Assembly (NCBI GenBank): GCA_903871765.1
Contig: CAIQIC010000214.1
Location: 1 to 39,165, forward strand
DNA: 39,165 nucleotides
Source of the DNA: an uncultured Lentisphaerota bacterium
Lineage (GTDB): Bacteria > Verrucomicrobiota > Kiritimatiellia > CAIQIC01
Reading direction: 5' to 3'
A model generated the notes under the pieces. The model had not been told where the DNA came from. It did not search any database and worked only from the letters and a program-made list of their open reading frames with translations. Both the position numbers and the translations under genes were made by a program. Positions 4,464 through 39,165 of the stretch are shown here, piece by piece (positions within the stretch are counted from its first letter, which is position 1; each line of letters starts with the position of its first letter).

Positions 4464-5906
4464 ATGTTCATGAAGACGTTGCTGAAAGTGCTGCTGTGGC
4501 TGGTGGGCGGGTTGGTTGCGCTGGTGGTGCTGTTCTACGCCGAGGAATACGTCCGCGGCCGCTATCTGTGGGAACGGCACCTGCGCGAACTCGCTGCTAA
4601 AGGTGACACCCTGGACATCCGGAAGATTGTCCCGCCGCCAGTTTCCGACGACCAGAATATGGCCGCCGCGCCGATCTTCGCGGAACTGTTCACCACCAAT
4701 CGCTCCGATAAAACCCGACTGGGGCAAGTCAAGCTGCCCGACGTAAAAGCGCAGGCTGGTGGAGGCTGGCTGGGCGGTCAAAAGCTGGATCTGAGTCCGT
4801 GGCGGGCGGCCTTCTCGAACGACAACCTCCTGGCCGCCCTGGCGATCTACGCGCCCGTCCTTCAGGAGATGGAAGCCGCCGCGCAGCGGCCGCAAGCCCG
4901 CTTCAATGTCCGCTATGAAGATGGTCCGGGTGCCTTTTTCCCGCATATCGGTTCCCTGCTCAAGCTGGCCAAAGTGTATCGCATCAAGGCGCTGGCCGAA
5001 CTGGCGGCGGGACACGCCGATGCAGCGCTGGGAGACGTCCGCCTGACGCTCCGGCTGGCCAAAGCCATGGAAGATGAACCCTCGCTGATATCCATCCTGG
5101 TGCGTGCCTCCATGATGCAACTGGTCATCCAACCGGTTTGGGAAGGACTGGCCGACCATCGCTGGAAGGTGGAGCAACTTGAGTCGCTCCAACAGGACTT
5201 TACCGCCATCAATCTTGTGAAACACATGGAACTGGCGCTGCATGGCGAGCGGTGCGGAGTCACGTGGATTTTGGAGCAGTTGCTGAATAATCCTGGCCTC
5301 GCGCTGGGTGAAATATCACGCTTGGATGGTGAACAAAGTGAACCGTCGCTGGCTGCTTATATAATCCCAAAAGGCTTGTTCTATATCAACTGCCTCAACA
5401 CTGACGTTAGCTACCAGAAATACATCATGCCGAGTTTGGACAGCCGGGTGATGCGCATATACCCTGAACGCTTTGATGCCTATGAAGCTGTGCTGGAGGA
5501 TTACAAAAGTCATCCGCTGACCGTACTCTACCATGTCATGGAGGCGATGCTTCTTCCGGCCATCAATAATGCTGAAATGAAAATCGGCATGGCGCAAAGC
5601 ACCGCACAATGCGCCGCGACGGCGTGCGCCCTGGAGCGTTACCGACTGGCGCGCGGCCGCTATCCGGACACGCTCGCGGCGCTGGTGCCGCAGTATCTCG
5701 CGGCGGTGCCCGGCGATGTGATGGACGGCCAGCCGTTGCGCTATCGCCTAGAGGGGGATGGCTTCGTCCTGTATTCCATCGGCTGGAATATGAAGGACGA
5801 CGGCGGGCAGGTGGCGTGGACCAAGCCGTCGTCCGAGGGCGACAAGCCGCGGCTGGACGACAAAGCCGGCGACTGGGTCTGGCGCTCGCAGCCGGCGGCG
5901 CTGTGA
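4464..5906 (+). CDS. Membrane-anchored hypothetical protein with a C-terminal pseudopilin/GspG-like motif
   Basis: N-terminal TM (LLKVLLWLVGGLVALVVLFY); C-terminal ALERYRLARGRYPDTLAALVP..DVMDGQPLRY..LYSIGWNMKDDGG. The ORF-track start 4350 lies inside REPs, so the ATG at 4464 or 4470 is preferred. Confidence 0.75.
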   Translation: MFMKTLLKVLLWLVGGLVALVVLFYAEEYVRGRYLWERHLRELAAKGDTLDIRKIVPPPVSDDQNMAAAPIFAELFTTNRSDKTRLGQVKLPDVKAQAGGGWLGGQKLDLSPWRAAFSNDNLLAALAIYAPVLQEMEAAAQRPQARFNVRYEDGPGAFFPHIGSLLKLAKVYRIKALAELAAGHADAALGDVRLTLRLAKAMEDEPSLISILVRASMMQLVIQPVWEGLADHRWKVEQLESLQQDFTAINLVKHMELALHGERCGVTWILEQLLNNPGLALGEISRLDGEQSEPSLAAYIIPKGLFYINCLNTDVSYQKYIMPSLDSRVMRIYPERFDAYEAVLEDYKSHPLTVLYHVMEAMLLPAINNAEMKIGMAQSTAQCAATACALERYRLARGRYPDTLAALVPQYLAAVPGDVMDGQPLRYRLEGDGFVLYSIGWNMKDDGGQVAWTKPSSEGDKPRLDDKAGDWVWRSQPAAL

Positions 5907-5926
5907 TGACGGGTAGCGATCCGGTT

Positions 5927-5949
5927 GTAGGCCGGGTCTCCGACCCGGC
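5927..5949 (+). repeat. GTAG-footed REP hairpin
   Basis: GTAG-GCCGGGTC-TCC-GACCCGGC, about 20 bp after a stop codon. Confidence 0.75.
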
Positions 5950-6037
5950 GTTCCGGTGCGCCGTTTTCTATTGAGATGGCGGGCGGGATGGGCTAAAAGA
6001 ATCCTGATTTTGCGGGAAGACGTGAGGAGTACGGGGT

Positions 6038-6958
6038 ATGAAACGAAAATGGCTGATGCTGTGGGCGGCGGGTTTGGTGTTGTCGGCCGTTGCCCAGGAG
6101 CCCGCGCCGGGGACGACTCCGGTGCGAGTCCGCGGCTCACGGGTCAATCTCCGCGCCAAGCCCGCTAAGGATGCCGAGCCGTTGGGGCAGGTGACGGACG
6201 GCACGGTGCTGACGGCCAAATCCTTCCGCGACGACTGGGTGGAAATCGTGCCGCCGGATCAAGTGTCGCTGTGGGTGCACAAGGATTTCATCAAAGACCA
6301 GGCGGTTTCGGCGGAGAAGTTGTACGTCCGCACAGGCCCCAACATCAATCATGCCATGGTCGGCACAATGCTGCGCGGCGAACGCCTGATCGTGCGCGGG
6401 CAAGCGCAGGACTGGGTCCGCATCGCACCGCCGCCCTCGGCGTCACTCTGGGTCAGCCGCGCGCTGGTGGAGGTTTTGCCGGGGGAGAAACAGCCGCCGC
6501 TGGCCGCCGACAAGGCTCCGCCGTCCCCGGCGATCGCCGCGCCTGCGCCCGTGCCAACGCCTGTACCAGCACCAGTGCCTGTGCCCGTGGCGCCGGCTGT
6601 TACGGCCCTGACGGCAGCGGTCGGCACGCCGGTGGTGACGACCGTGGAAACAACGGCGACCAACGAAGTCGTGCCGCGCGATTTGAACCTGGTGCCGCTG
6701 GCGGGGCAGGGCCGGGTCACCCAGCGCGAGGGTGTCCTGCGGCTGGTGGGCTTCGGTTTTCATCATCCCAGCCGGTACCGGCTGGTTAAGCTGGATGGCC
6801 GGCACATCGAGACCCTTTGCTATGTGCGGGGCAATTCCAGCCAATTGAGCGCGTTGCTGGACCAGTCGCTGCTGATTCGCGGGCGCGAGTACTGGGTGAG
6901 CGGGTCGGAATACTCCTTGTTGATTCCGGATCGCATCACGCCGCGCGCCGGCCCCTGA
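6038..6958 (+). CDS. Secreted tandem SH3b-domain protein
   Basis: Signal peptide; two SH3b-like repeats (VNLRAKP..DWVEI..LWVH; LYVRTGP..DWVRI..LWVS); Pro/Ala/Val-rich linker. Confidence 0.8.
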   Translation: MKRKWLMLWAAGLVLSAVAQEPAPGTTPVRVRGSRVNLRAKPAKDAEPLGQVTDGTVLTAKSFRDDWVEIVPPDQVSLWVHKDFIKDQAVSAEKLYVRTGPNINHAMVGTMLRGERLIVRGQAQDWVRIAPPPSASLWVSRALVEVLPGEKQPPLAADKAPPSPAIAAPAPVPTPVPAPVPVPVAPAVTALTAAVGTPVVTTVETTATNEVVPRDLNLVPLAGQGRVTQREGVLRLVGFGFHHPSRYRLVKLDGRHIETLCYVRGNSSQLSALLDQSLLIRGREYWVSGSEYSLLIPDRITPRAGP

Positions 6959-11261: not shown

Positions 11262-12050
11262 TCACCGCAGCCCATACACGAGCAGCACGCCTCCGCCCAG
11301 CAGCAGGCGGTACAGCGCGAAGAGGCCGAATCCGCGGTGGTTTAGAAAGGCGAGCAGAAACCGGATGCTGAGCAGGCCGGCCACCGCGGAACAGGCCATG
11401 CCCACGGCCACAGGCGTCAGGGCCTGCTGCATCGCGAACAGGCTTTTGATCTTTACCAGGGCGGCGCCGGCAATGATCGGCGCGGACAACAGGAAGGAAA
11501 ACCGCGCCGCGGCTTCGCGGGTCAGTCCCAGACCTAAACCGGTGGTCATGGTGATGCCCGAGCGGGAAACGCCGGGGATGACGGCCAGGGTTTGCGAGAG
11601 GCCGATCAGCAAGCCGCGCCGCCAGCCGGTTTGACCGATGAGCAGGGCCTTGCGCCCCCGCCAGTCGGCCCAGAAGAGGATCACGCCCATCGCCATCAAC
11701 ATCACGGCGATCAACGCGGGCTGGCGGAACGTCGTTTCGACTTTGTGTTCCAGCAGCAGACCGATGACCGCGCCGGGGATGCAGGCCATGATGAGAATCC
11801 AGAAAAGCTGGCCGTCGGTGGTGCGGGGCGCCCGCACGCCGGCCAGCGCGAGACGCAGCCAGTCGCGCCAGAAGTACAGCGCGATGGCGATCAGCGTGCC
11901 CACGTGCAGGGCGACATCGAAGGCCAGGGAATGTTCCGGCCAGCGCAACAGCCAGGGGACGAGAATCAGGTGCGCGGAGCTGGAAATCGGCAAAAACTCG
12001 CCCAACCCCTGCACCACGCCGAGCACCGCCGCCTGCAGTATGGTCATCAT
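11262..12050 (-). CDS. uppP: Undecaprenyl-diphosphate phosphatase (BacA/UppP)
   Basis: GVVQGLGEFLPISSSAH and PGVSRSGIT..AARFSFLL signature motifs. Confidence 0.95.
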   Translation of the reverse strand: MMTILQAAVLGVVQGLGEFLPISSSAHLILVPWLLRWPEHSLAFDVALHVGTLIAIALYFWRDWLRLALAGVRAPRTTDGQLFWILIMACIPGAVIGLLLEHKVETTFRQPALIAVMLMAMGVILFWADWRGRKALLIGQTGWRRGLLIGLSQTLAVIPGVSRSGITMTTGLGLGLTREAAARFSFLLSAPIIAGAALVKIKSLFAMQQALTPVAVGMACSAVAGLLSIRFLLAFLNHRGFGLFALYRLLLGGGVLLVYGLR

Positions 12051-12255
12051 GTCAAATCCCCATGGTTCGCCCGCCGCCCGCCGGCGTGGACCGGCCCCGG
12101 CGGAAAGGCGAAAACACTAGGTTAAAATCCTGCCGCATTCAACTCCAACCTTGGCCGCAGTCACGTTCATCATAGCCAGCCGGCTGGGATGGGACCCCGG
12201 TTTTTTGAACAGATGCCGCAGATTGTCGGAATGAGGAAGGGCGCGGCGGTGCTTT

Positions 12256-12298
12256 CCAAGCTTTGGATAAATTGTTATTCTCTCATGCCAAGCTTTGG
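12256..12298. repeat. Pair of CCAAGCTTTGG quasi-palindromes 32 bp apart
   Basis: 12256-12266 and 12288-12298, just upstream of the RM gene. Confidence 0.7.
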
Positions 12299-12321
12299 AA
12301 CACCCACGGGAGCGCAGGCGC

Positions 12322-15309
12322 ATGGCGGAAGAAAAGGCGACGTTGTCCAGTTTTCAGGCCGAGGTGGGCCGACTGGTGGAATTGTTCGAGCGCAATCGCG
12401 CGCACTTTTCCGAAAAGGGCTATGACGAGGCCAGCCTCCGCAACGAGTTCCTCAATCCTTTTTTCCGCGCGCTCGGCTGGGACGTGGAGAACCAGGCCGG
12501 CCACATTCCCTCGCAACGCGAGGTCGAGCTCGAAAGTCGCACGGAAATCAGCGGCCGCCAGAAGCGCGCGGATTTTCTGTTTCGCGTAGGGGGCCGGGAA
12601 CGCTTTGTGTGCGAAGCGAAGAAACCCGGCGGGGTCCCGACGCCGTCGGCGGCCTTCCAGGCCAAACGCTATGCGTGGAACAAGAATTTACCCCTCGCTC
12701 TACTGACCGACTTCGTTTCGTGGCGGCTCTACCTCGTCGGCAGCAAGCCGCATCCGGACGAACCCGATCTCGGCCTCTGGAAGAGCTGGCAATTCCGCGA
12801 ACTGCCCCTCGCGGCGGACGAAATCTGGAAGCTGTTGAGCCGCGACAGCGTGGCCGGGGGCGTGATCGAACGCGAGATTGAGGCGCTGCCCATGAGACCC
12901 AGCGGTAAGGGCCGCGCCCAACAGCAATGGCTCATCAAGCCCGACCGCACGCGCGCGCTGGACACGGACTTCCTCAACTTCCTCGACGATGCCCGCCGCG
13001 AACTTGCGTCCGATTTGCTCAAGCATAACGACCGTGCCGACCTGCTCGAAGGCACCAAGCTCAACGAAGCTGTCCAGCACATCATTGACCGGGTGCTGTT
13101 CCTGCGCATCTGCGAAGATCGCGAGATTGACACCGGCAAGCGTCTGACCAGCTTCCTGCGCGGCGGGCGGGAGGGCGGCGCGTGGCGCAAACCGCGCCAG
13201 CCCGCGTTACTCGCCAGCGAGGCGCAGGCCACCTATGGCACGGACGCGCAGCCCAAGGCCCCGGCGCCCGAAGGCGCCATCTGGCGCAGCCTGGCGCGGC
13301 ACTTTGGCGAACTCGACCGCCGCCCGCCCACGCAGGTTCCGTTCTTCAACGGCAATCTCTTCAAGGAACATTTCTGCGAGGAATTGATCGTCGGCGACGA
13401 ATGGCTCGGTCGCTTCATCGCGGAATTGAGCGACGAAGAATCGCCCTACCTCTTCATCTATATCCCCGTTGAAATCCTTGGCACGATCTACGAGCGCTTC
13501 CTCGGCAAGGTCGTCCGGCCCCAGGGCCGCGGCGCGACCATCGAGGAGAAGCCGGACGTCCGCAAGGCCGGCGGCGTCTATTACACCCCGCGCTATATCG
13601 TGGACTACATTGTCGAGCAGACCGTGGGCAAACTGCTGGAAGGCCGGACGCCGGAAGCGAGCTTGAAGCTAAAGATTCTCGACCCCGCCTGCGGTTCCGG
13701 CAGCTTCCTCATCCGCGCCTTCGAGCGGGTTTGCGAGCACTGGCAGGAATGGCTGACGCGGAATCCGCAGAAACGCCGCCGCGCGTGGTGCTGGACCGAC
13801 CCCGCGACCAACGACGTGCACCTGACCAGTGCCCTCAAGCGCCGGATCCTGACCAGCACCATCCATGGCGTGGACCTCGACGCCGCCGCCGTCGAAGTCA
13901 CACAGCTTTCGCTCTACCTCAAGATGCTGGAAGACGAGAACCGCACCACCCTCCAGCGCGAACGCGAACTCTTCGGCGGCGACGAACCCATCCTGCCGCC
14001 GCTGGAAAACAATATCAAAAACGGCAACTCCTTGATCGCCTCCGATTTCTCCATGATCCCCGAAGACCTCGTCCGCGTCCATGCGTTCGACTGGCCCGTC
14101 CAGTTCAAGGAAATCATGCAAAATGGTGGTTTCGATGCGATCATCGGCAATCCGCCGTACATTCTCCTTCAAACGATGGAGGAGCGTACAGTTTTTTCGT
14201 ACATTAGCGGAAAATACAGGGCCGCGAAGTACAAGATCGATACGTATCAAGTCTTTATGGAACGAGCGCTCTCGTTGATCAAAGAACAAGGTTTGTTCGG
14301 ATTTATTACACCCAATAGTTTCCTGAGGAACAAGCATGCAATTGAATTACGCTCACTAATCCTTAAAACAACTGAGGTCGCCGCTTTGCGAACATTCTAC
14401 TACCCAGTTTTCAAAGGAGCCAGTGTCGATACTTGCATCCTGATAGCTAGGAAGGTAGGGCATCCAAATCCAGTCACTAGAATAACTGTTATGTCATCGG
14501 AAACCCCCAGTCAGGCCAGCACCCTGACAGTACAACAACAAAGGTGGCAATCGCACCCCCAGAAGAATTTCTTTATGCCAGGCCCGGGAGCGACAGATGA
14601 ATTGGTGGAAAAAATACGAAATAGATCGGATTCTCTTGGAGAGGTTGCAACTGCATACTTCGGCATTCAAACCTTTGATCGTGATAAATATGTTACAGAA
14701 AGAAAGCGCCTCAAGGTACACAAGCCGATAATAGACGGCGGCAATATTCAGCGTTATGACCTGCTTCCAGGGAGCGAATTTGTAGACTTTCGACCTTCGG
14801 CAATTAAGAGCGGTGGCAATGCGCAGGTCTACGAGAACGAACGAATCGGTGTACGCCAAATCGGTAAAACACCGATCGGAACGATCATTCCGGCGGGAAT
14901 ATATTCGCTCAATACGATCTACAATATTTATTTTATAAAACCCACGAGGTTGAGCCTGCGTTTTGTCCTAGCTTTGATCTCATCGTCGACAGGACGCTGG
15001 TATTGGGAACATTGTTTCTTCGATCAGAAGGAGACCTTTCCAAAGGTCAAAAAAGATTCGCTTCTTTCCTTTCCTATTCCTCGACTTGACTCGGGGAAGG
15101 CGGAAGATTATGAGCACCATGATCGGATTGTCAGCTTGGTGGACAAGATGCGGTGTTTGATGCCGGGGCTTCGTATGGCGAAGTCGGAGAGCGAAAAGCA
15201 GACGTTGCAGAACGCGGTGGATGCGACCGACCGGGAGATTGATCAACTGGTGTATGAACTCTATGGACTCACCAAGGAAGAAATCGCGCTTGTCGAAGGC
15301 GGGCGGTAA
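12322..15309 (+). CDS. Type IIG-like (Eco57I/TaqI-type) fused restriction endonuclease, N6-adenine methyltransferase and TRD
   Basis: N-terminal nuclease motif RADF..CEAKK; GVYYTP; motif I ILDPACGSGSFL; motif IV IIGNPPY; C-terminal TaqI_C-like TRD and DREIDQLVYELYGLT tail. Confidence 0.9.
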   Translation: MAEEKATLSSFQAEVGRLVELFERNRAHFSEKGYDEASLRNEFLNPFFRALGWDVENQAGHIPSQREVELESRTEISGRQKRADFLFRVGGRERFVCEAKKPGGVPTPSAAFQAKRYAWNKNLPLALLTDFVSWRLYLVGSKPHPDEPDLGLWKSWQFRELPLAADEIWKLLSRDSVAGGVIEREIEALPMRPSGKGRAQQQWLIKPDRTRALDTDFLNFLDDARRELASDLLKHNDRADLLEGTKLNEAVQHIIDRVLFLRICEDREIDTGKRLTSFLRGGREGGAWRKPRQPALLASEAQATYGTDAQPKAPAPEGAIWRSLARHFGELDRRPPTQVPFFNGNLFKEHFCEELIVGDEWLGRFIAELSDEESPYLFIYIPVEILGTIYERFLGKVVRPQGRGATIEEKPDVRKAGGVYYTPRYIVDYIVEQTVGKLLEGRTPEASLKLKILDPACGSGSFLIRAFERVCEHWQEWLTRNPQKRRRAWCWTDPATNDVHLTSALKRRILTSTIHGVDLDAAAVEVTQLSLYLKMLEDENRTTLQRERELFGGDEPILPPLENNIKNGNSLIASDFSMIPEDLVRVHAFDWPVQFKEIMQNGGFDAIIGNPPYILLQTMEERTVFSYISGKYRAAKYKIDTYQVFMERALSLIKEQGLFGFITPNSFLRNKHAIELRSLILKTTEVAALRTFYYPVFKGASVDTCILIARKVGHPNPVTRITVMSSETPSQASTLTVQQQRWQSHPQKNFFMPGPGATDELVEKIRNRSDSLGEVATAYFGIQTFDRDKYVTERKRLKVHKPIIDGGNIQRYDLLPGSEFVDFRPSAIKSGGNAQVYENERIGVRQIGKTPIGTIIPAGIYSLNTIYNIYFIKPTRLSLRFVLALISSSTGRWYWEHCFFDQKETFPKVKKDSLLSFPIPRLDSGKAEDYEHHDRIVSLVDKMRCLMPGLRMAKSESEKQTLQNAVDATDREIDQLVYELYGLTKEEIALVEGGR

Positions 15310-15330
15310 GATCGCCGTTGTAGAAAGAAC

Positions 15331-15353
15331 GCCGCGTAGGATACGCGGCCTAC
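15331..15353 (-). repeat. GTAG-footed REP hairpin
   Basis: Reverse complement GTAG-GCCGCGTA-TCC-TACGCGGC, about 20 bp after the RM stop; same architecture as 5927-5949. Confidence 0.7.
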
Positions 15354-15823
15354 AGCACGGGGATTTTAGCCCCACGGTCATCTGCCATGCTTTCGCCTGG
15401 CCGGAGGTGCTGCTGCCCTGGGTGATTGCGGAATGCGTCTGCCAGGAAGTTTCGGTTTTCCTGGGGATCCAGATGCCACGGCGCTATGCGCGGTGGCTGA
15501 CGGCCAAGGCCGAGGTTTGTTTCCAGAAGCACCGCTATTTCCGTCGCCGGATGCGGGCGAGCGGCAATGTGCCGCGTGATCAACTGCGGGTGTATATGCG
15601 GCACTGGCTTTCGGCTTTGCTTGGCACCGAGCGGCGCGACCTCTGGTTTTGCCTGCCACAAAGCTTTGACCTTGGCCATCCGCTGCCGCCCGGACAGCAG
15701 CCGCGCCAGAACCGCCGCACCTCCGGCTCGTTGCCGCATCCCCGTCGCTGGCGGCCGGAATTGGTCCTGAAAAACCGCCGCTGGCAATGGCTGGCAGGCT
15801 GCTCCGCAGCTTCCGCGGCCTGA
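15350..15823 (+). CDS. Basic hypothetical protein, start uncertain (ATG 15472, or 5' end lost)
   Basis: Open frame with protein-like composition (YARWLTAKAEVCF..LRVYMRHWLSALL); no clear start or RBS after the RM stop. Confidence 0.4.
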   Translation, partial: LQHGDFSPTVICHAFAWPEVLLPWVIAECVCQEVSVFLGIQMPRRYARWLTAKAEVCFQKHRYFRRRMRASGNVPRDQLRVYMRHWLSALLGTERRDLWFCLPQSFDLGHPLPPGQQPRQNRRTSGSLPHPRRWRPELVLKNRRWQWLAGCSAASAA

Positions 15824-15854
15824 AAAGAAATAATAGTCCGCCCAACCTGGCGGC

Positions 15855-16691
15855 TCACGGGTTGGGCGCTACCGGGGGCGCCTGGAGCAGGTAGCCCAAC
15901 TGGCGCAGCCGGTTGGGATGCAGGAACAGGATCAGCAGGCCGCCGATCAGGTTGCCCAGCGTGACGGCCAGGAGGCTCTTCAGCATGATGGTCTGGCCCG
16001 CGAACGGCACGCCCTTGGCCAGCAGCCCCGCGGAGACCAGGAACATGTTGGCCACGCAGTGCTCGAAGCCGCAGGCGACGAACAGCATGATCGGCAAGAC
16101 GCAGCAGACGATCTTGGAAATGATGTCTTTCGCCATCGTGGCCATGATGATGGCCAGAATCACCAGGATGTTGCACAGGATGCCCCGGAGCACGCCGGCG
16201 CCGAAGCTCAGCGCCAGCTTGTTCTCGGCCACCTTCACCGCCAGTTGGCCGAGCGCGTTGAGGCCCCCGGCGGTTTCGTACAGACCGCTGCCCCAGATCG
16301 CCAGGGCGAGGGCGTAGGCGCCGATGAAATTGCCCGCATAGACCGTCAGCCAGTTGCGCAGCACCCGCGTGAACGGGAACTGCCGCGTCACGGCGCCGAC
16401 CGCCATGATGATGTTGCCCGTGAAGAGCTCCGCGCCGGCCACCACCACCAGCACCAGGCCGACGCTGAAAGCGGCGCCGGCGGCGATCCGGCCCAAGCCC
16501 TGCTCCAGGGCCACCAGGCTGACTTGACCGCCCAGGCCGATATAGAGGCCGGCCAGGATACCCAGCATCAGCAACTGCCAGAGCCGGTCGTTGGCCTTCT
16601 TGATGCCGAGCACGGAGATTTTCCGCGAAAACTCCCGGCCGGAAAGGGTGGGGCTGTAAGCGCGGGCCGGATCGCTGGAGTTTGGTTGCAT
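15855..16691 (-). CDS. Formate/nitrite transporter (FNT family)
   Basis: GILAGLYIGLG, GAELFTGN, GILCNILV, FEHCVANM motifs; 6 TM segments. Confidence 0.92.
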   Translation of the reverse strand: MQPNSSDPARAYSPTLSGREFSRKISVLGIKKANDRLWQLLMLGILAGLYIGLGGQVSLVALEQGLGRIAAGAAFSVGLVLVVVAGAELFTGNIIMAVGAVTRQFPFTRVLRNWLTVYAGNFIGAYALALAIWGSGLYETAGGLNALGQLAVKVAENKLALSFGAGVLRGILCNILVILAIIMATMAKDIISKIVCCVLPIMLFVACGFEHCVANMFLVSAGLLAKGVPFAGQTIMLKSLLAVTLGNLIGGLLILFLHPNRLRQLGYLLQAPPVAPNP

Positions 16692-29415: not shown

Positions 29416-30750
<1,335 letters not shown>

Positions 30751-31860: not shown

Positions 31861-32093
31861 GCTACGCTCCTTTGTCGGGCAGACAGAATACTGGATGGAC
31901 CGGCGCGCGGCAAGGCGCGCCCGGCAGGGCCGGCGCACCCAATTTCTTCAAACACGTTTGCCTTTCCGACCCTGTCATGGCATCGTCCCCACCATGCAAT
32001 CTTTTCTGCAACATCAGATAAGGGCAGGAAAATGTCTAGGAACTGGTCTTTGAGGGCGCTGGGCTTGATTGATGGAGAAATAGGAGTAGGAGC

Positions 32094-32587: not shown

Positions 32588-32821
32588 TCCTACGCTCTGC
32601 ACCCGCAGACGGGCTTGAGCTACGGATGGCAAGCCATCGGGCGCAGAGTTTAGGATGCCCTGCGAAGCACAAGGCCAAAGGCCGCGGGGCGTAGCAGGGC
32701 AAAGTCTGATTCTTCGTTCTGCGCCCGCCAAGCGGGTTTGCGCTACGGATGGCCAGCCATTCAAGTTGCCGCGCGGAGGATGCCCTCCATAGCGTCAGCG
32801 TAGCGCCGCGCGACGGAGGGC
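32584..32821. repeat. Two tandem ~120-bp units, each an inverted pair of bulged hairpins
   Basis: Unit 1 32584-32700, unit 2 32709-32821; shared GCTACGGATGGC-A/C-AGCCAT and AGGATGCCCT..AGGGC. Confidence 0.8.
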
Positions 32822-32847
32822 GAAGTTCCATTGAATCCGGAAAGAAG

Positions 32848-32881
32848 TTGACACCGGCCCGGAATTATGTAAAACGTAGTA
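32848..32881 (+). promoter_or_regulatory. Promoter (TTGACA) with an overlapping imperfect palindrome, candidate PadR operator
   Basis: TTGACA at 32848-32853; AATTATGT-AAA-ACGTAGTA at 32863-32881 overlaps the -10 region. Confidence 0.55.
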
Positions 32882-32900
32882 CGTCTTACGGAGTACCAGG

Positions 32901-33260
32901 ATGATCGCCGGCTGGGTGACGCAATTGCGCAAGGGGCTGCTGGAGTACTGCGTGCTGAACGTGCTCCGCCGCGGCGCGAGCTACGGCTACGAGATCGTCC
33001 AAGCGCTCCAGCAAATCGAAGCGCTGGCCGTCTCCGAGAGCACGATCTATCCCATCCTCAACCGGCTGCGCGCGGAAAAATATCTGACAACGCGCGACGT
33101 GCCGTCGGCGTCCGGCCCGCCGCGCCGCTACTTCACGCTCACGCCCGCCGGCCGCCTGCGCCTCGCGGAAATGCGCGCCCACCTGGATTTACTCAACGAT
33201 GCATTGAACCAGTTGCAACAACCCCTGCATGAGAAGGACCAACATGAACCTGCCGGATGA
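32901..33260 (+). CDS. PadR-family transcriptional regulator (short subfamily 2)
   Basis: QLRKGLLEYCVL, SYGYEI, SESTIYPILNRL, GPPRRYFTLTPAG. Confidence 0.95.
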   Translation: MIAGWVTQLRKGLLEYCVLNVLRRGASYGYEIVQALQQIEALAVSESTIYPILNRLRAEKYLTTRDVPSASGPPRRYFTLTPAGRLRLAEMRAHLDLLNDALNQLQQPLHEKDQHEPAG

Positions 33261-36200
33261 ACTCCAACGGAAGATCGAGGACTATTTGCGCGCGGTGGAC
33301 AGCCACCTCGGATCCCGCAGCGCCGCCGTGCGCCGGGAACTGCTGAACGAACTCCGCGAACATATCGCCGAAGCCCTGCGCCGCCGCTGCAGCGCGGCAG
33401 CCCCCACCGCGGCCGATCTGGAGGCCGTGCTCGGCGAGTTGGATGCGCCGGAAAGCTATGCGGAGGAGGCCGGCGCTTTGGCCGCAACGCCGGCGCCGTG
33501 CGATCCGCACCGGCGCTCCACGGTTTGGTTGTTGCTGGCGCTGGCCGCCCTGGCGCTGAACGGCTGGGCCGTGTGGCGGCTGACGCATCAGCCGCCGGCC
33601 GGCGGCGTTGCGTCGCCCGGCGGACAGAAAACGGCGGCCGTGGCGCCGGCATCCTTGCGACTGGACAGCGTGGAGCAAATCAATCTCTCGCCAGACCGCG
33701 AGGCGACGCTGCGCCTTTCGTTCACCGCCAGGCCCAGCCGGACGGATCTGAAGAAATATCTCCGGCTCATGACGCCCGATAAAAAAGAGCAGGATTATGT
33801 CCTGGTCGGCGCCGCCGGCGTGAATGTCGTGCTGATCCGGACGGGGCCGTTGAGCTTTGATCAACTCTGTCTGGAACTGGCCAAAGGATTGCCGGCGGTC
33901 GGTGGACCGCCGGCTACGGACAGCGCGTGGAGCATCGATCTGGAAATAACCTCCAAGCTGCAATTGACCCGGATCGAGCCGCAGGCGCCGGCCTTCGGCG
34001 ACATCCACCTGGAGTGTCAATTCACCGAGCAGCTAGATCCCAGCGCGGCGTCCCCGTTCATCGAAGTATCGCCCGTGGTCAAATTCACGGCCGAGCAGCA
34101 TTGGCGCGGTTGTGCGCTGAGCGGCCCGTTCCAACCGGGCGCGATCTACACGCTGACGTTCCGCGCCGGCCTGCGCTCAGTCAACGGGCGCCCGCTGTTC
34201 AAGGACGTCGTGCGCACGGTCCAGATCCCCAATCGGCGGACGGCGGTGGCCATTGCCACGGACGGCCGTTATCTTTCACCGCGCGGCCAACTGACCGTGC
34301 CGGTCAGCGCGATGAACCTGCGCGCCTGCGAGATCAGCCTCGCGCCTGTCCTGCCCCAGAACCTGGTGTTCCTGGCCCAGCGGGATGGCGGGCGCAATGC
34401 GAATAATGCCCAGGAAGCGGCCGACCGGCTGACGGACGCGGCGGCGACCGTGACGAACCGGCTGGCCGCGCCGCTGAACACCGAGGCAAAATTTTCCGTC
34501 CACTTGCGCGATCTGGCCGGTCCCGAGCCGCGCGGGCTCTACCTGTTGAGCGTGCGCAAGCTGGCGGACTCAGCGGCGGAGCGTCCCTATTATTCCGGTC
34601 GCGGGCGCCGGCACTATTATTATGACGACGACAGCCGCGTGCAGGATCACAAGCTGATTGCCGTGACGGATCTCGGCCTCGCCGCGCGCCTGAGCAGCGG
34701 CGAATTGCTGGTGTGGGTCAATTCCCTCGGCACGGCCAAACCCGTCGCCGGGGCGGAACTGGTGCTCTATGCGGAGAACAACACCGAGCTGGCTCGCGGC
34801 GCGACGGACGCCCGCGGGCTGGTGACGCTCCGGTTCAAGCAGGATGACAAGGCCGCCGCGCCGTTCCTGGTGGTGGCCCGCGCGGGCGCGGATTTTTCGT
34901 TCCTGCCGCTCGAAGGCACACAGGTGAACGCCGCGGGCGAGACAGACGGTCGCCCCTATCTGGCCGACGGCTATGAGGCCTATCTCTTCAGCGATCGCGG
35001 CGTATACCGGCCCGGCGAAACGGTGCATCTCCAGGCGCTGGTGCGCGACCGTCATCTGGAAGCACCGCCGGCGTTCCCGGCCCTGTTCCGCGTGGTGAAG
35101 CCCAATGGCCGCGTCTTCCGGGACGTGCCCATCCAACTCGATGCCCAAGGCGCGGCGGAAACGGCGGTGACGCTGCCGGAGTTCCTGCCGACGGGCCGTT
35201 ACGAGTGCCGGCTGGTGTTGCCGGGCACGTTCAAGGAACTCGGCGCCACACCGGTCGCGCTGGAGGAATTTGTCCCGCCGCAGATTCGCGTACGCGTGGA
35301 GACACCCGCGGCCCGCGTCGCGGCCGGCCGGCCCGTGCCGTTTGCTGTCCGCGCCGAGCATCTCTTCGGCCGCCTGGCGGCGGGACTCAAGGCGCGGGGC
35401 TACGTCACGCTACGGCCGGCGCCGTTTGCGCCCAAGGCCTGGCCGGAGTGGCGGTTTGGCGACGAGGAACGGAAATTCGCGGAAACCTTCAAGGTGGACA
35501 GCGAGCGGGTGCTGGATGCGCAGGGCAGCGCCGCGTTTGCCATTCCGACCAGCGACGCCTGGCGGCCGCCGGCCGCCATCCGGGTCGGATTCCAGGCGAC
35601 GGTGACCGAGTCCAGCGGTCGTCCGGTCACCGCGCACGCCCAGACCCTGGTGGACGTCTATCCCTTCTACATTGGCTTGAAAACCGGCGACCGGGACGTG
35701 GTACGCGTCGGCGAGACACAGCAGGTCGCGGTGGTCGAAGTCGCCGGTGACGGCGCGGCGTGGACCAACGCCAAGCCGTTGGCGGTACGCCTGGACCGCG
35801 TCGCGTGGAACACGGTGCTGCGGCGGGACGACCGCGGTCGTTATCAATGGCAGTCCGAGGAGCAGAAGACCAAGGTGCTCGAAGACACCTGCGCTGCCGG
35901 CGGGCAGCCGTCCGACTATGCCTTCAGCGTCTCCGCGCCGGGCCAGTACCTGCTGACCTTCAGCCATCCGGCCAGCGGCGCTGCGTCGAGCTTCCGCTTC
36001 TATGCCGGCACGGCGGACCAGCAGTGGTTGTCGTGGAGCCGCGAAAAACCCGACGTGGTGGAGTTGACGCTGGACAAGCCGTCCTACCGGCCGGGCGACA
36101 TGGCGCGGTTGCTGATCAAGGCGCCGTTTGCCGGCCAGGCGCTGCTGACGATCGAGTCCAACCATGTGCTGGAAAGCCGCGTGATCGAGCTGGCGAAGAA

Positions 36201-38700
36201 CACCGCCGAAGCGGAACTCGCGGTGCGGCCGGACTACGCGCCGAATGTCTATTGCTCCCTGACGCTGATCCGGCCGGCCGTGGCGGAGAGTGTCTGGACC
36301 GCGCACCGCGCCACGGGCGCGACGCCGCTCAAGGTCGTGCCGCCCGGCCGGCGCTTGGTGGTGACACTCGATGCGCCGGCGACCAACCGGCCGCAGGCGC
36401 GACTGACCGCGAAGGTGCGTGTCACCGATGAATCCGGCGCGCCCGCCGCCGCGGACCTCGCCGTGATGGCTGTGGACGAGGCCATCTGCATGTTGACGGC
36501 GTACCCGATGCCCGATCCCTTGAAATGGTTCCTCGGCCAGCGCGCGCTGGGCGTCAACCTGTTCGATGTGTACGGCGAACTGATGCCGGTGGTGGACGAC
36601 GCCGCGCTGGGCACGGCGGCGCATCCGGCGGGCGGCGCCGCCGCCGACCTCGGCCGGCGGTTGAATCCCATCAAGGCCAACCGCTTCAAACCGGTCGCGT
36701 TGTGGGTGTCGCAACTGCACACCGGCACGAATGGCGAGGCGGAGGCCGGCTTCGACGTGCCCGAGTTCACCGGCGAGCTGCGGCTGACGGCCGTCGCGTG
36801 GAACCGGGCGCAGTTCGGCGCGCAGCAGCAGAACGTCAAGATCAAGCGCGCGCTCGTGGCGCAGCCGAGTCTGCCGCGTTTTCTGGCGCCGGGCGATCGC
36901 TGCTTCGCGTCCGTGGCACTGTTCAATGAAAGTGGCGCGCCGGTTCAAGCGCGCCTGCGCGTCACTTGCGGCGGGCCGCTGAACGTGGAACAAGCCGAGC
37001 AGGACATCCCGCTCCCGCCGGGCGAGGCGCGCAACGTGGTGGTGCCGCTGGCCGCCGGCACGGTGCCGGGCAAGGCGCTGTGCACCATCGAGGCGGAAGC
37101 CGGTACGGAACGGTATCGCGAAACCATCGAACTGGCCGTGCGGCCCGCGGCCGGGCTGGCGGTGGACGCGGGCTTTGGCGCGCTGAAGGCCGGCGAGCAG
37201 CGGACGATGCTGCCGCCGGCCAACTGGATTCCCGCCACGCTGCGGCAGGAGGTCTGGTGTTCCGGCCAGCCGGCGCTCAAGCTCGGCCGCGGACTCGATT
37301 ACCTGCTGCATTATCCCTACGGCTGCCTGGAGCAGACCACCTCGGCCGCGTTCCCGTTGCTCTACCTGGCCGACCTCGCCAACCGCGTCCTGCCGCGGAG
37401 CATGGGTCGCGATGAGACCGAGCAGTTTGTTCAGGCGGGCGTGCTACGTGTGCTCTCCATGCAGCAGGGCCATGGCGGTTTCAATCTCTGGCCCGACAGC
37501 ACCATGTGCGACGAGGGGGCGGCGATCTATGCGGCGCATTTCCTGGTTGAAGCCCGGCGCGCCGCCTACGATGTGCCGACCGACCGCCTGGACGCCGCCC
37601 TGAGCTGGCTGCGCAGCCGCCTGGACAGCCCGGTACCCGACGACGTTGGCAGTTCTGCGTGGCAGGCCGACATGACTGTGCGCGCCTACGCCTGCCAGGT
37701 GCTGGCGTTGGCCGGGAAACCGGAACACGGCTGGACGGCCCGGTTGCGCGAGGAAGCCCGGCGCTTGCCGTTCGACGCGCAGGTCCACACGGCCGCGGCG
37801 TTACTCGCCGCCGGCGAACCGCGTCAGGCCACGGAGTTGATGACGGCCTTAGGTTTGCCCGATGCCGGTCGTCCTCGCGCCGGCGGGTGCATCGCCGCCG
37901 GCGGCGTGCGCGAGGCCGCATTGCTGCTCAGCGCGTGGCTGGATATTGCGCCGCAGCACGAAAACGTCGCCCGGCTGGCGCAAGCGCTCGATCGTCAACA
38001 AAAAGATGGACACTGGGGCACGACGCAGGACAACGCGCTGGTGCTCCTGGCGCTGGGCAAATATGCCCGGCTCGTGCCCGCCGCCCAGCCCTTCGCCGCC
38101 ACCCTCGCGTTGCCCGGCGGCCTGACGCGGGTCGTGAACGAGAAGCAGGCTGTGCACTGGAGCAACGGCACCAACCAGACCGGCGCCGTGACGCTTCGCA
38201 ACGATGGACCGGGCCTGCTGTTCTACGCCTCCCGCGCCGAGGGCGTACCGCTGGACGGCGCGCAGCCGGAGGAAGATGCGGGTTTGAAGGTCCGGCGCGA
38301 ATGGCTCGACCTCAACGGCGCGACCTGGGGCGCACGGGCCGTCGCGCAGGGCGATCTGATCGTCGTCCGAATCACGGTGGACACCCTGGGACGCGAACTT
38401 GACAATCTGGTGATCGAGGAGCTGCTGCCCGCCGGCCTGGAGATCGAGAATCCAAATCTGGCGACGGCGGCCCTGGTGCCATGGCTCAAGGAGAAATCCG
38501 ACTGGTGCATCCATCGCGACCTCCGCGACGATCGGTTGGTGCTCTTCACCGGTCCGGTGGTGGGGCAACGCGCCTTCTATTACGCCGCCCGCGCGGTCAC
38601 GTCCGGCCGCTTTGTGCTGCCCGCCGTGTCCGGCAGTTGCATGTACGACCCGGAGATCCGCAGCGTTCACGGCCGCGGCACGCTGGAAATCAAACCGTGA
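33244..38700 (+). CDS. Bacterial alpha-2-macroglobulin with N-terminal HAAS-like domain and TM anchor
   Basis: TDLGL, SDRGVYRPGETV, EEFVPP, LDKPSYRPGD, AVDEAI, FTGELRL, PRFLAPGD, thioester YPYGCLEQ (CLEQ at 37324-37335), WGTTQDNA, LLPAGLEIEN, RDDR, MYDP; N-terminus IEDYLRAVDSHL..RRELLNELREHIAE..VLGELDAPESYA; RBS AAGGA before ATG 33244. Confidence 0.92.
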   Translation: MNLPDELQRKIEDYLRAVDSHLGSRSAAVRRELLNELREHIAEALRRRCSAAAPTAADLEAVLGELDAPESYAEEAGALAATPAPCDPHRRSTVWLLLALAALALNGWAVWRLTHQPPAGGVASPGGQKTAAVAPASLRLDSVEQINLSPDREATLRLSFTARPSRTDLKKYLRLMTPDKKEQDYVLVGAAGVNVVLIRTGPLSFDQLCLELAKGLPAVGGPPATDSAWSIDLEITSKLQLTRIEPQAPAFGDIHLECQFTEQLDPSAASPFIEVSPVVKFTAEQHWRGCALSGPFQPGAIYTLTFRAGLRSVNGRPLFKDVVRTVQIPNRRTAVAIATDGRYLSPRGQLTVPVSAMNLRACEISLAPVLPQNLVFLAQRDGGRNANNAQEAADRLTDAAATVTNRLAAPLNTEAKFSVHLRDLAGPEPRGLYLLSVRKLADSAAERPYYSGRGRRHYYYDDDSRVQDHKLIAVTDLGLAARLSSGELLVWVNSLGTAKPVAGAELVLYAENNTELARGATDARGLVTLRFKQDDKAAAPFLVVARAGADFSFLPLEGTQVNAAGETDGRPYLADGYEAYLFSDRGVYRPGETVHLQALVRDRHLEAPPAFPALFRVVKPNGRVFRDVPIQLDAQGAAETAVTLPEFLPTGRYECRLVLPGTFKELGATPVALEEFVPPQIRVRVETPAARVAAGRPVPFAVRAEHLFGRLAAGLKARGYVTLRPAPFAPKAWPEWRFGDEERKFAETFKVDSERVLDAQGSAAFAIPTSDAWRPPAAIRVGFQATVTESSGRPVTAHAQTLVDVYPFYIGLKTGDRDVVRVGETQQVAVVEVAGDGAAWTNAKPLAVRLDRVAWNTVLRRDDRGRYQWQSEEQKTKVLEDTCAAGGQPSDYAFSVSAPGQYLLTFSHPASGAASSFRFYAGTADQQWLSWSREKPDVVELTLDKPSYRPGDMARLLIKAPFAGQALLTIESNHVLESRVIELAKNTAEAELAVRPDYAPNVYCSLTLIRPAVAESVWTAHRATGATPLKVVPPGRRLVVTLDAPATNRPQARLTAKVRVTDESGAPAAADLAVMAVDEAICMLTAYPMPDPLKWFLGQRALGVNLFDVYGELMPVVDDAALGTAAHPAGGAAADLGRRLNPIKANRFKPVALWVSQLHTGTNGEAEAGFDVPEFTGELRLTAVAWNRAQFGAQQQNVKIKRALVAQPSLPRFLAPGDRCFASVALFNESGAPVQARLRVTCGGPLNVEQAEQDIPLPPGEARNVVVPLAAGTVPGKALCTIEAEAGTERYRETIELAVRPAAGLAVDAGFGALKAGEQRTMLPPANWIPATLRQEVWCSGQPALKLGRGLDYLLHYPYGCLEQTTSAAFPLLYLADLANRVLPRSMGRDETEQFVQAGVLRVLSMQQGHGGFNLWPDSTMCDEGAAIYAAHFLVEARRAAYDVPTDRLDAALSWLRSRLDSPVPDDVGSSAWQADMTVRAYACQVLALAGKPEHGWTARLREEARRLPFDAQVHTAAALLAAGEPRQATELMTALGLPDAGRPRAGGCIAAGGVREAALLLSAWLDIAPQHENVARLAQALDRQQKDGHWGTTQDNALVLLALGKYARLVPAAQPFAATLALPGGLTRVVNEKQAVHWSNGTNQTGAVTLRNDGPGLLFYASRAEGVPLDGAQPEEDAGLKVRREWLDLNGATWGARAVAQGDLIVVRITVDTLGRELDNLVIEELLPAGLEIENPNLATAALVPWLKEKSDWCIHRDLRDDRLVLFTGPVVGQRAFYYAARAVTSGRFVLPAVSGSCMYDPEIRSVHGRGTLEIKP

Positions 38701-38828
38701 GCGGGGCAGAAACCGAAAAGAATTCGCCACGGCTGAAGACGGATTACAGAGAGATAGGAAGAAGCAAAGGATTAACCACCGAGGCCGAAGGTCCTTCCCT
38801 TGGAAGGAAAAGTCCTGCGCCCGGCAGG

Positions 38829-38896
38829 AACACGGAGGTCGGAGGAGGTTGCAGAGGTCGGAAGTTTATCCACAGATTACGCAGATTTCACAGATT
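38829..38896 (+). repeat. Short 9-10-bp-period repeats (CACGGAGG-type and CAGATT-type)
   Basis: AACACGGAGGTCGGAGGAGGTTGCAGAGG and TATCCACAGATTACGCAGATTTCACAGATT; an inverted relative CTCCGTGAAC-CTCCGCGCAC-CTCTGCGTTC lies at 39131-39160. Confidence 0.65.
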
Positions 38897-38955
38897 AAGA
38901 TGGGGATAAGAGTGTCTTGGAAGAGGAGCAAGGTCGGGTTTTGGCGTGCGGCCGG

Positions 38956-39074
38956 GGAGCGCGGGCTTCTAGCCCGCACTTGCCGGCATCTTGCCGGCAA
39001 GCATATCTCGCTCCCGGCGATGCAGCAGGCAACGCGGCCGGAGGCCTCGTTGGGCGGGCTGGAAGCCCGCGCTC
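38956..39074. repeat. REPIN-like inverted doublet of a second GGAG-footed REP
   Basis: GGAGC-GCGGGCT-TCT-AGCCCGC at 38956-38977 and inverted GCGGGCT-GGA-AGCCCGC-GCTC at 39054-39074; extra hairpin CTTGCCGGCA-TCT-TGCCGGCAAG between them. Confidence 0.8.
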
Positions 39075-39165
39075 ACCGATGTAATGAAGATCATCCGATT
39101 GAAACCCCCTGTGCAGAGATCAAAGGGCCGCTCCGTGAACCTCCGCGCACCTCTGCGTTCCTGCC

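Follow-up and report, generated by a model that had tools for sequence, protein, structure and literature searches.

In the HAAS-PadR dyad, a proposed alternative to two-component systems that takes the place of the kinase-regulator pair, the HAAS domain would pass a signal from the domain to which it is fused on to PadR through a groove at its kinked third helix (PMC11237479, available text). Described examples include the Listeria PadR repressors LltR (with Lmo0600) and LstR (with a HAAS-bearing FtsW/RodA homologue), which, according to the accessible part of PMC6624303, autorepress operons encoding DUF1700/HAAS membrane proteins. Protection of the periplasm is the role proposed for bacterial alpha-2-macroglobulins (A2Ms), with PBP1C as their companion, and this pairing, read as a periplasmic defence-and-repair pair, is established (PMC5764988 and PMC4498604, available portions). 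Here we report a locus in which a HAAS domain and an A2M are joined in one polypeptide. It lies in a 39,165-nt stretch of DNA from an uncultured Lentisphaerota bacterium (assembly GCA_903871765.1, contig CAIQIC010000214.1, positions 1 to 39,165 of the forward strand; the whole stretch is hereafter called the window), where a padR gene is followed by a gene for a protein of 1,818 amino acids (aa) that carries an N-terminal HAAS domain, one transmembrane (TM) helix and an A2M ectodomain.

The locus resembles the Listeria dyads in having a cytoplasmic N-terminal HAAS domain on a membrane protein and a stand-alone padR immediately upstream, and operon autorepression would be a further likeness under the reading that we propose below. 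The fusion partners given in the available text of PMC11237479 are multi-TM proteins (FtsX-like, FtsW/RodA, PspC, LiaF and VanZ), Toastrack domains and pentapeptide repeats, whereas the partner here is a single helix followed by a 1,700-residue periplasmic thioester trap, and the Gly of the HAAS GxP motif is an invariant Asp. With the Escherichia coli and Salmonella proteins ECAM and Sa-A2M (PMC4498604 and PMC5764988, available portions), the window protein shares the MG/BRD/TED/CTMG domain set, the CxEQ thioester motif, the bait position, the RDDR motif, inner-membrane anchoring and, in most relatives, a downstream pbpC gene, but it differs from them in its signal-anchor helix in place of a lipid, its cytoplasmic HAAS domain and its dedicated repressor gene. 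The accessible portions of these two papers name no regulator or signal for ECAM or other bacterial A2Ms. HAAS-PadR dyads and A2M-PBP1C pairs are each known, and we found no paper describing their fusion: our literature search returned none that joined an A2M with PadR, DUF1700 or HAAS, and the word "macroglobulin" occurs 0 times in the main text of PMC11237479, whose supplementary tables or web app may list the architecture. Databases already display the architecture, though under no name, as the public Pfam precomputation marks both HAAS and A2M on the cluster representatives P0003 and P0004. The features of the unit are as follows.

32901-33260, + strand: padR, 119 aa, a single-domain PadR-type winged helix (Pfam PadR 78.1 bits, cut-off 27)
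33244-38700, + strand: HAAS-TM-A2M gene, 1,818 aa, from Pfam and structure-database matches
33280-33468, + strand: HAAS domain (PF22564), residues 13-75, cytoplasmic
33517-33576, + strand: single TM helix, residues 92-111, from hydropathy, with the motif W-x2-L-A-x3-L-x2-N-x-W-x-V-W
36601-36660, + strand: bait-like segment, residues 1120-1139, from alignment with the YfhM bait stretch
37324-37335, + strand: thioester motif CLEQ, residues 1361-1364
38281-38655, + strand: C-terminal MG10 domain (bMG10 94-97 bits) with an RDDR motif read in the sequence

The large open reading frame (ORF) has its first ATG at 33229 and ends at 38700, and its 1,818-aa version begins at the ATG at 33244 (MNLP), the start also seen in homologues and in P0003, the representative of its database cluster. 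Because padR ends in a TGA at 33258-33260, this start gives an overlap of 17 bp. The HAAS family matched the N-terminus at 31.5 bits in the whole protein and at 37.6 bits with residues 1-90 scanned alone (cut-off 27), and a genome scan gave the same coordinates. An AlphaFold2 model of residues 1-90, with a predicted local distance difference test score (pLDDT) of 80.6, has helices at residues 5-21, 27-48, 56-65 and 69-78 and a break at 66-68; the modelled N-terminus shows the HAAS fold of three helices with the third kinked at a GxP-like site. The break falls at L-D-A-P, in which Asp67 is the invariant residue at the Gly position and a Pro follows at +1 or +2. Compared with the PDB by Foldseek, this model had no match at E ≤ 0.001 (best 0.85), which says nothing about the fold, and NCBIfam had no family for the large protein and placed all PadR matches under its cut-off.

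Residues 92-111 make up the only hydrophobic segment, with a 19-residue Kyte-Doolittle peak of 1.74; elsewhere in the protein no peak exceeds 1.6. On inspection of the sequence no signal peptide or lipobox was found ahead of this helix, and membrane anchoring appears to be kept by a signal-anchor helix instead of the lipid of a lipoprotein. The cytoplasmic linker that leads from HAAS to the helix differs in length among relatives (about 15 to 60 residues), is rich in Pro, Ala and Gly and falls to a pLDDT of 50 in the model; the periplasmic linker of the window protein, of about 30 residues, is likewise of low complexity. In the ectodomain, eight Pfam families (bMG3, MG2, bMG5, bMG6, A2M_BRD, A2M, TED_complement and bMG10) were all above their cut-offs, and residues 296-1809 matched the structures of Salmonella Sa-A2M (4u48) and E. 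coli YfhM/ECAM (5a42, 4ziq and 4rtd) at E of about 1e-114. The bait-like segment aligns with the YfhM stretch RLAALRFGGDGDELKR, which includes the bait Arg923-Leu942 that is disordered in cleaved ECAM, according to the available text of PMC4498604, from which the role of the RDDR motif in the C-terminal domain is also taken. The thioester motif CxEQ was present in 19/19 full-length TM-anchored relatives. Judged by its domain set, CxEQ motif and bait position, the protein is a complete type I A2M, and protease trapping after bait cleavage is predicted from these same features.

The fusion is conserved. A first search, with residues 1-140 only and among proteins of similar length, found four other clusters (P0004-P0007) that were 38-50% identical at the N-terminus and full A2Ms by precomputed Pfam. 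The N-terminal profile A1, run on the contigs of one genome per species, matched 17 loci, all in metagenome-assembled genomes (MAGs) and labeled, where a label was given, Kiritimatiellaeota, Lentisphaerae/Victivallales or Verrucomicrobiota; the pattern of this profile is the helix motif, so that fusions with another helix would be missed. Fifteen of the 17 loci had padR directly upstream on the same strand, together with a HAAS N-terminus and an A2M body by tblastn. Their padR matches were 56-75% identical in this search, the window's PadR is 54-74% identical to those encoded upstream of 15 related A2M genes, and the A2M bodies were full-length save in L001 and L012, which are cut by contig ends. 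The window and these 15 HAAS-bearing relatives are the 16 loci referred to below, and Pfam HAAS matched all 16 N-termini (E ≤ 0.01).

Of 401 evenly sampled genomes of the phylum, 28 had a profile match at E ≤ 1e-5. For 19 of them the match lay at the start of an open frame of 1,803-2,013 aa; two others (G179 and G185) had seemingly split or cut frames, one was helix-only, and the rest were short HAAS proteins. A bMG10 domain was found in 205 of the 401 genomes, and about one in ten of the A2M-bearing sampled genomes has the HAAS-TM-A2M form. Within the order to which the window belongs (families f1-f3), 12 of 14 genomes had the profile, mostly with one bMG10 match, and the HAAS-TM-A2M is usually the sole A2M there. 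The window's own genome, a MAG of 3.9 Mb in 573 contigs that is 82% complete, contained one bMG10 and one HAAS by genome scan, both within the gene at 33244-38700. A library of 1.84 billion representatives gave 1,061 profile matches at E ≤ 0.001, and among the best 150 of the 1,061, 17 were 1,780-2,303 aa long, with A2M domains confirmed for P0005 and P0007. Contigs from public runs on freshwater and freshwater sediment (two studies) spanned both the passage from padR into the ORF start and that from HAAS through the helix into the ectodomain (X1 record 2, 33156-35373; X3 record 17, 33344-33675; X2 record 8, 32783-33288), although one of the bridging samples may itself be the source of the window. 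The hosts are uncultured freshwater and sediment bacteria of the Planctomycetes-Verrucomicrobia-Chlamydiae (PVC) group.

A preliminary description of the window, made without database searches, had read the locus as a padR overlapping by 17 bp the start of an 1,818-aa protein, with a HAAS N-terminus, one TM helix without a lipobox, and a complete macroglobulin with an intact CLEQ and a bait-position segment. The coordinates, the homologue start, the Pfam matches and the alignments agree with it on each of these points. It had also supposed that HAAS is partnered by the adjacent PadR, and the padR gene that a dyad requires was indeed directly upstream in the window and in 15/15 HAAS-bearing relatives; our architecture search further established that the fusion is not a one-off, and the literature, within the scope given above, held no account of an architecture of which it had known no description. 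The pbpC gene after the A2M in most relatives, the conserved operator and the sister forms lacking HAAS had gone unnoticed in it.

The distribution of padR and HAAS ties the two together. They occurred together in 16/16 loci and were both absent from 5/5 sister loci with a TM-anchored A2M. The two remaining profile matches, L014 and L015, match from the helix onward, and their proteins begin 10-18 residues before the same helix motif; further HAAS-less TM-A2Ms came from the phylum sample, namely L030, in a genome of the same order as the window's, L031 and L032. No padR or HAAS match was found in the flanks of these five loci, of which 1.1 to 7 kb upstream were covered, and all five have pbpC downstream. 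In a maximum-likelihood tree of the ectodomain (23 rows, with the truncated L001, L012 and L033 left out), all helix-anchored A2Ms formed one clade (100% by the Shimodaira-Hasegawa-like approximate likelihood ratio test, SH-aLRT), apart from the signal-peptide, lipoprotein-like and sigma-fused A2Ms, and L014 and L015 nested in a HAAS-bearing clade with L010, L003 and L006 (100% SH-aLRT). The HAAS/padR state changes at least three times on this tree, and a single HAAS group was rejected by the approximately unbiased test (p = 1.2e-73), the group having been named after the tree was seen and long branches being present. Thus padR and HAAS have been repeatedly gained or lost together, which is the strongest evidence in our analysis that they work together.

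A candidate target of PadR lies just upstream of its gene, next to a promoter-like stretch.

32848-32875, + strand: promoter-like stretch, with TTGACA at 32848-32853, a 16-nt spacer and TAAAAC at 32870-32875, read by eye
32869-32889, no strand assigned: candidate PadR operator, a 21-nt near-palindrome GTAAAACGTA-G-TACGTCTTAC with the core CGTAGTACG at 32875-32883

The near-palindrome is placed between the -10-like hexamer and a GGAG ribosome site, and a TTGAC-like hexamer could be seen by eye at the same distance in most of the 16 upstream regions. Its core, CGTASTACG, occurred once in the 39-kb window versus 0.04 times expected from shuffles. In 10 of the 16 loci the exact core was found at -24 to -27 from the padR ATG and was the sole exact copy in the locus, and five more loci had a core with one mismatch, four of them at -25/-26 and one, L016, at -11 from the start codon used. 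The core was not found in the HAAS-less L014 and L015, and in the window's own genome the extended palindrome stood in promoter position only at the padR site. From this placement and conservation, we predict that PadR most likely binds the palindrome on its own promoter.

Taken together, these results fit best with a reading to which we give even chances, namely an autorepressed envelope-defence operon of PVC-group bacteria in which the trap is wired to its own repressor and the state of the trap is the input. The unit would consist of padR, the gene for the HAAS-TM-type I A2M and, in most relatives, that for a PBP1C-type cell-wall synthase. PadR on the palindrome at its own promoter would, we infer, keep the unit shut. 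The signal-anchor helix would hold the A2M in the inner membrane with the trap in the periplasm and the HAAS domain of about 75 residues in the cytoplasm, where HAAS would bind PadR and so set the amount of free repressor. A foreign protease, as the putative signal, would cut the bait and consume the single-use trap, and the cell would then make new trap and repair enzyme. Trap state would be a natural input because a single-use inhibitor needs replacing once it is consumed. The preliminary description had suggested that bait cleavage could be relayed across the membrane to HAAS, and on this point we depart from it: a rigid relay is unlikely because the linkers beside the helix are variable, of low complexity and flexible, and the signal would more plausibly run via clustering, turnover or cleavage of the reacted molecule than by a rigid push through one helix.

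A unit that worked in this way would have counterparts elsewhere. In RsiV-sigmaV, as in other anti-sigma systems governed by regulated proteolysis, there are parallels to the model: the RsiV anti-sigma factor is itself the lysozyme receptor, the outside domain binding the host lytic enzyme and the inside domain holding the transcription factor. This single-pass membrane protein works as the proposed model would, but its domains are unrelated and it releases a sigma factor where the window would use a PadR repressor, and a proteolytic cascade is not among the features seen in the window. In animals, only the reacted ("transformed") A2M-protease complex is read by LRP1, and it triggers a cellular response (PMC12939704, available part); LRP1 is a separate receptor working through endocytosis and kinase signaling, whereas the trap and the signaling module of the window would be one polypeptide. 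The physical joining of a trap to a repressor-pairing module, the joint gain and loss of padR and HAAS and the sigma-fused family described below offer a testable model for how a cell may sense a foreign protease and replace a suicide inhibitor. They would also widen the scope of the HAAS-PadR dyad, taking it beyond membrane-stress modules to a large domain that consumes its ligand in the periplasm.

Several observations weigh against this reading. A sigma-70 consensus scan did not call the padR promoter, whose second hexamer is without the final T, and the operator core was not found in L004. The 3.9-Mb genome holds 10 exact cores, nine besides the padR site, versus about 27 by a composition estimate; as the nine are no more than chance, no wider PadR regulon is visible in that genome. 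A complex prediction for PadR with HAAS residues 1-90 scored 0.42 versus 0.00 for the best control, with at least 76% of contacts shared among runs and a partner pLDDT of at least 78, which weakly supports contact between them. Of 80 solved complexes 58 attained the mark for this prediction, as did 2 of 110 mismatched pairs; passing scores of 0.60 or lower belonged to only 7 of the 80 solved complexes but to both mismatches. A pass as weak as this one is wrong in more cases than not, except where the pairing was already probable. The low-complexity linkers flanking the helix speak against direct conformational relay, as said, and the TM-A2M-pbpC arrangement outlasted two or more losses of HAAS and padR, which means that the trap does not need them. 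The pbpC linkage is unproven in the window's own genome, as the contig stops 465 nt past the A2M gene, and another gene comes after the A2M in L002 and L005, the two nearest relatives.

A second kind of fusion bears on the reading of the trap as a sensor. In another genome of the same bacterial family (G026, contig C120), the second A2M gene (L034:1856-8566, - strand, a frame of 2,319 codons) encodes a protein of 2,237 aa from its likely start, with extracytoplasmic function (ECF) sigma regions 2 and 4 (42 and 43 bits), one hydrophobic segment and an A2M part with MG2, A2M, bMG10 and the thioester motif CSEQ. A search with its residues 1-290 gave 14 clusters of 2,248-2,303 aa that bear sigma and A2M Pfam domains, and two shorter clusters (1,522 and 1,652 aa) with sigma domains and MG2 only. 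As in the window protein, a single helix connects the A2M-family ectodomain with a transcription factor module in the cytoplasm. The differences are that the transcription factor itself (sigma70 regions 2 and 4) is fused, with no PadR or HAAS, and that the A2M stands on another branch, with the signal-peptide forms L035 and L037, and has a long helical N-terminal region and CSEQ. No sigma-TM-A2M fusion was found in the window's own genome, in line with its single bMG10, and the literature search gave no paper with both ECF sigma and macroglobulin among the matches listed. Fusion of an A2M ectodomain to a transcription factor module of the cytoplasm has thus occurred at least twice, and this makes the sensor reading more probable. 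A broader view, in which membrane-anchored A2Ms are single-use receptors for foreign proteases, with bait cleavage and thioester firing of the periplasmic trap read out inside the cell by HAAS-PadR or, independently, by a fused ECF sigma factor, is possible, and we advance it tentatively. If it holds, bacteria would possess an innate-immune sensor of the "guard" type, and the A2M-PBP1C defence would have its long-missing regulator.

Alternatively, the HAAS-TM part may sense membrane or cell-wall perturbation in the manner of Lia/Psp systems, with the A2M and PbpC being mere outputs under PadR control and the A2M fused for the sake of a shared anchor. HAAS-PadR dyads have been described in neighborhoods with PspC, LiaF and Toastrack (PMC11237479, available text), and the helix seems to have a role of its own, as its motif is better conserved than HAAS and is kept without it. 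Eight of its residues (W95, L98, A99, L103, N106, W108, V110 and W111) are invariant in alignment A1, the motif with its invariant Asn and three Trp is retained in the HAAS-less L014, L015 and L030-L032, and mean column conservation was 0.58 at residues 101-125 versus 0.41-0.47 at residues 1-75. The motif probably serves for contact with a partner of its own or for self-association. Set against this, HAAS was on the A2M polypeptide in 16/16 loci, at which neither pbpC nor any separate membrane protein carried it, and the independent sigma-TM-A2M family suggests that the A2M ectodomain itself serves as an input module. We consider a sensor of general envelope stress unlikely. A candidate partner for the helix is a different membrane protein, for example the PBP1C anchor, or a second copy of the helix.

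A second alternative to a trap whose state is read out is feedback on dosage only, in which HAAS titrates PadR according to the amount of A2M made or inserted and so holds the trap at a steady level without any outside signal. The flexible linkers would suit a simple tether, and in 10/16 loci the padR and A2M genes share 4 or 17 nt or are set apart by a 9-nt gap, making near-stoichiometric synthesis possible. In 6/16 loci, however, the genes are 88-607 nt apart, so that coupling is not universal, and constitutive sequestration of an autorepressor would lead to runaway expression unless a change of state gates it. We find this explanation quite improbable. An artefact of assembly or annotation, or a one-off deletion joining two genes, might be suspected from a MAG so fragmented and incomplete, but its probability is negligible, the same continuous frame in 16 loci of different MAGs and in 19/401 genomes, together with the junction-bridging public contigs, excluding it.

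Beyond the fusion itself, a PBP1C-type gene (Transgly 174 bits, Transpeptidase 75.7 bits) followed the A2M in 11 of the 17 profile loci. It was found in 9 of the 12 HAAS loci that extend past the end of the A2M gene and in 3/3 further TM-only loci (L030-L032). The window's own genome has a pbpC homologue, 63-68% identical to that of L017, which lies at the end of contig C114 and is truncated there at its 5' end. Joining the window end to C114 gave no meaningful overlap, with short chance matches only; this truncated homologue is compatible with a pbpC downstream of the window without showing it. The window ends in the following feature.

38718-39165, no strand assigned: repeat-rich tail at the contig end, no gene, with 47 short matches elsewhere in the same genome and inverted repeats

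The 47 matches lie on other contigs and reach up to 90% identity over 50-120 nt, two imperfect inverted repeats are present, and the sole ORF is low-complexity junk. These dispersed repeats are the likely reason for the assembly break.

Other neighbors of the A2M differ among relatives. In L002 and L005 the gene after the A2M (L005:8288-9493) is TPR-tailed (tetratricopeptide repeat) and groups by BLAST with the PliI gene of L015; in L015 a PliI lysozyme-inhibitor gene (11838-12581, 106 bits) stands between the A2M and pbpC. L008, L011 and L013 (L013:6844-7728) have a DUF3298/PdaC-like gene after the A2M, which we take to have an RsiV-type fold. The PliI, DUF3298/PdaC-like and TPR-tailed genes, together with the A2M and PBP1C, look like an anti-lytic-enzyme island; a tblastn search of the window's own genome, which is 82% complete, gave no homologue of the PliI-like or DUF3298-like neighbor genes. 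Signaling genes adjoin some of the HAAS-less A2Ms and may replace PadR/HAAS there: in L032 (7650-9992, - strand) a CreD gene (437 bits) and a HAMP histidine kinase gene lie upstream of the A2M on the same strand, in L015 a divergent PAS histidine kinase gene (5238-6833, - strand) adjoins it, and in L030 a divergent gene for an ArsR-type helix-turn-helix protein (724-1788, - strand) does so.

In the window itself the padR-A2M unit stands alone, the phosphofructokinase gene upstream of it being on the opposite strand and ending at 31938, about 960 nt before padR. Two genes farther upstream are of separate interest. A 1,004-aa restriction-modification fusion of Eco57I/MmeI type (12295-15309, + strand; Eco57I 124 bits, TaqI_C 62 bits) sits where the GC content drops to 0.53 (14001-16000, the one such stretch in the window, versus about 0.66 elsewhere) and was probably acquired horizontally. 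The gene at 29416-30750 (+ strand) unites a DUF2092 periplasmic domain (119 bits) with a thioredoxin/AhpC-TSA redoxin domain (80 bits).

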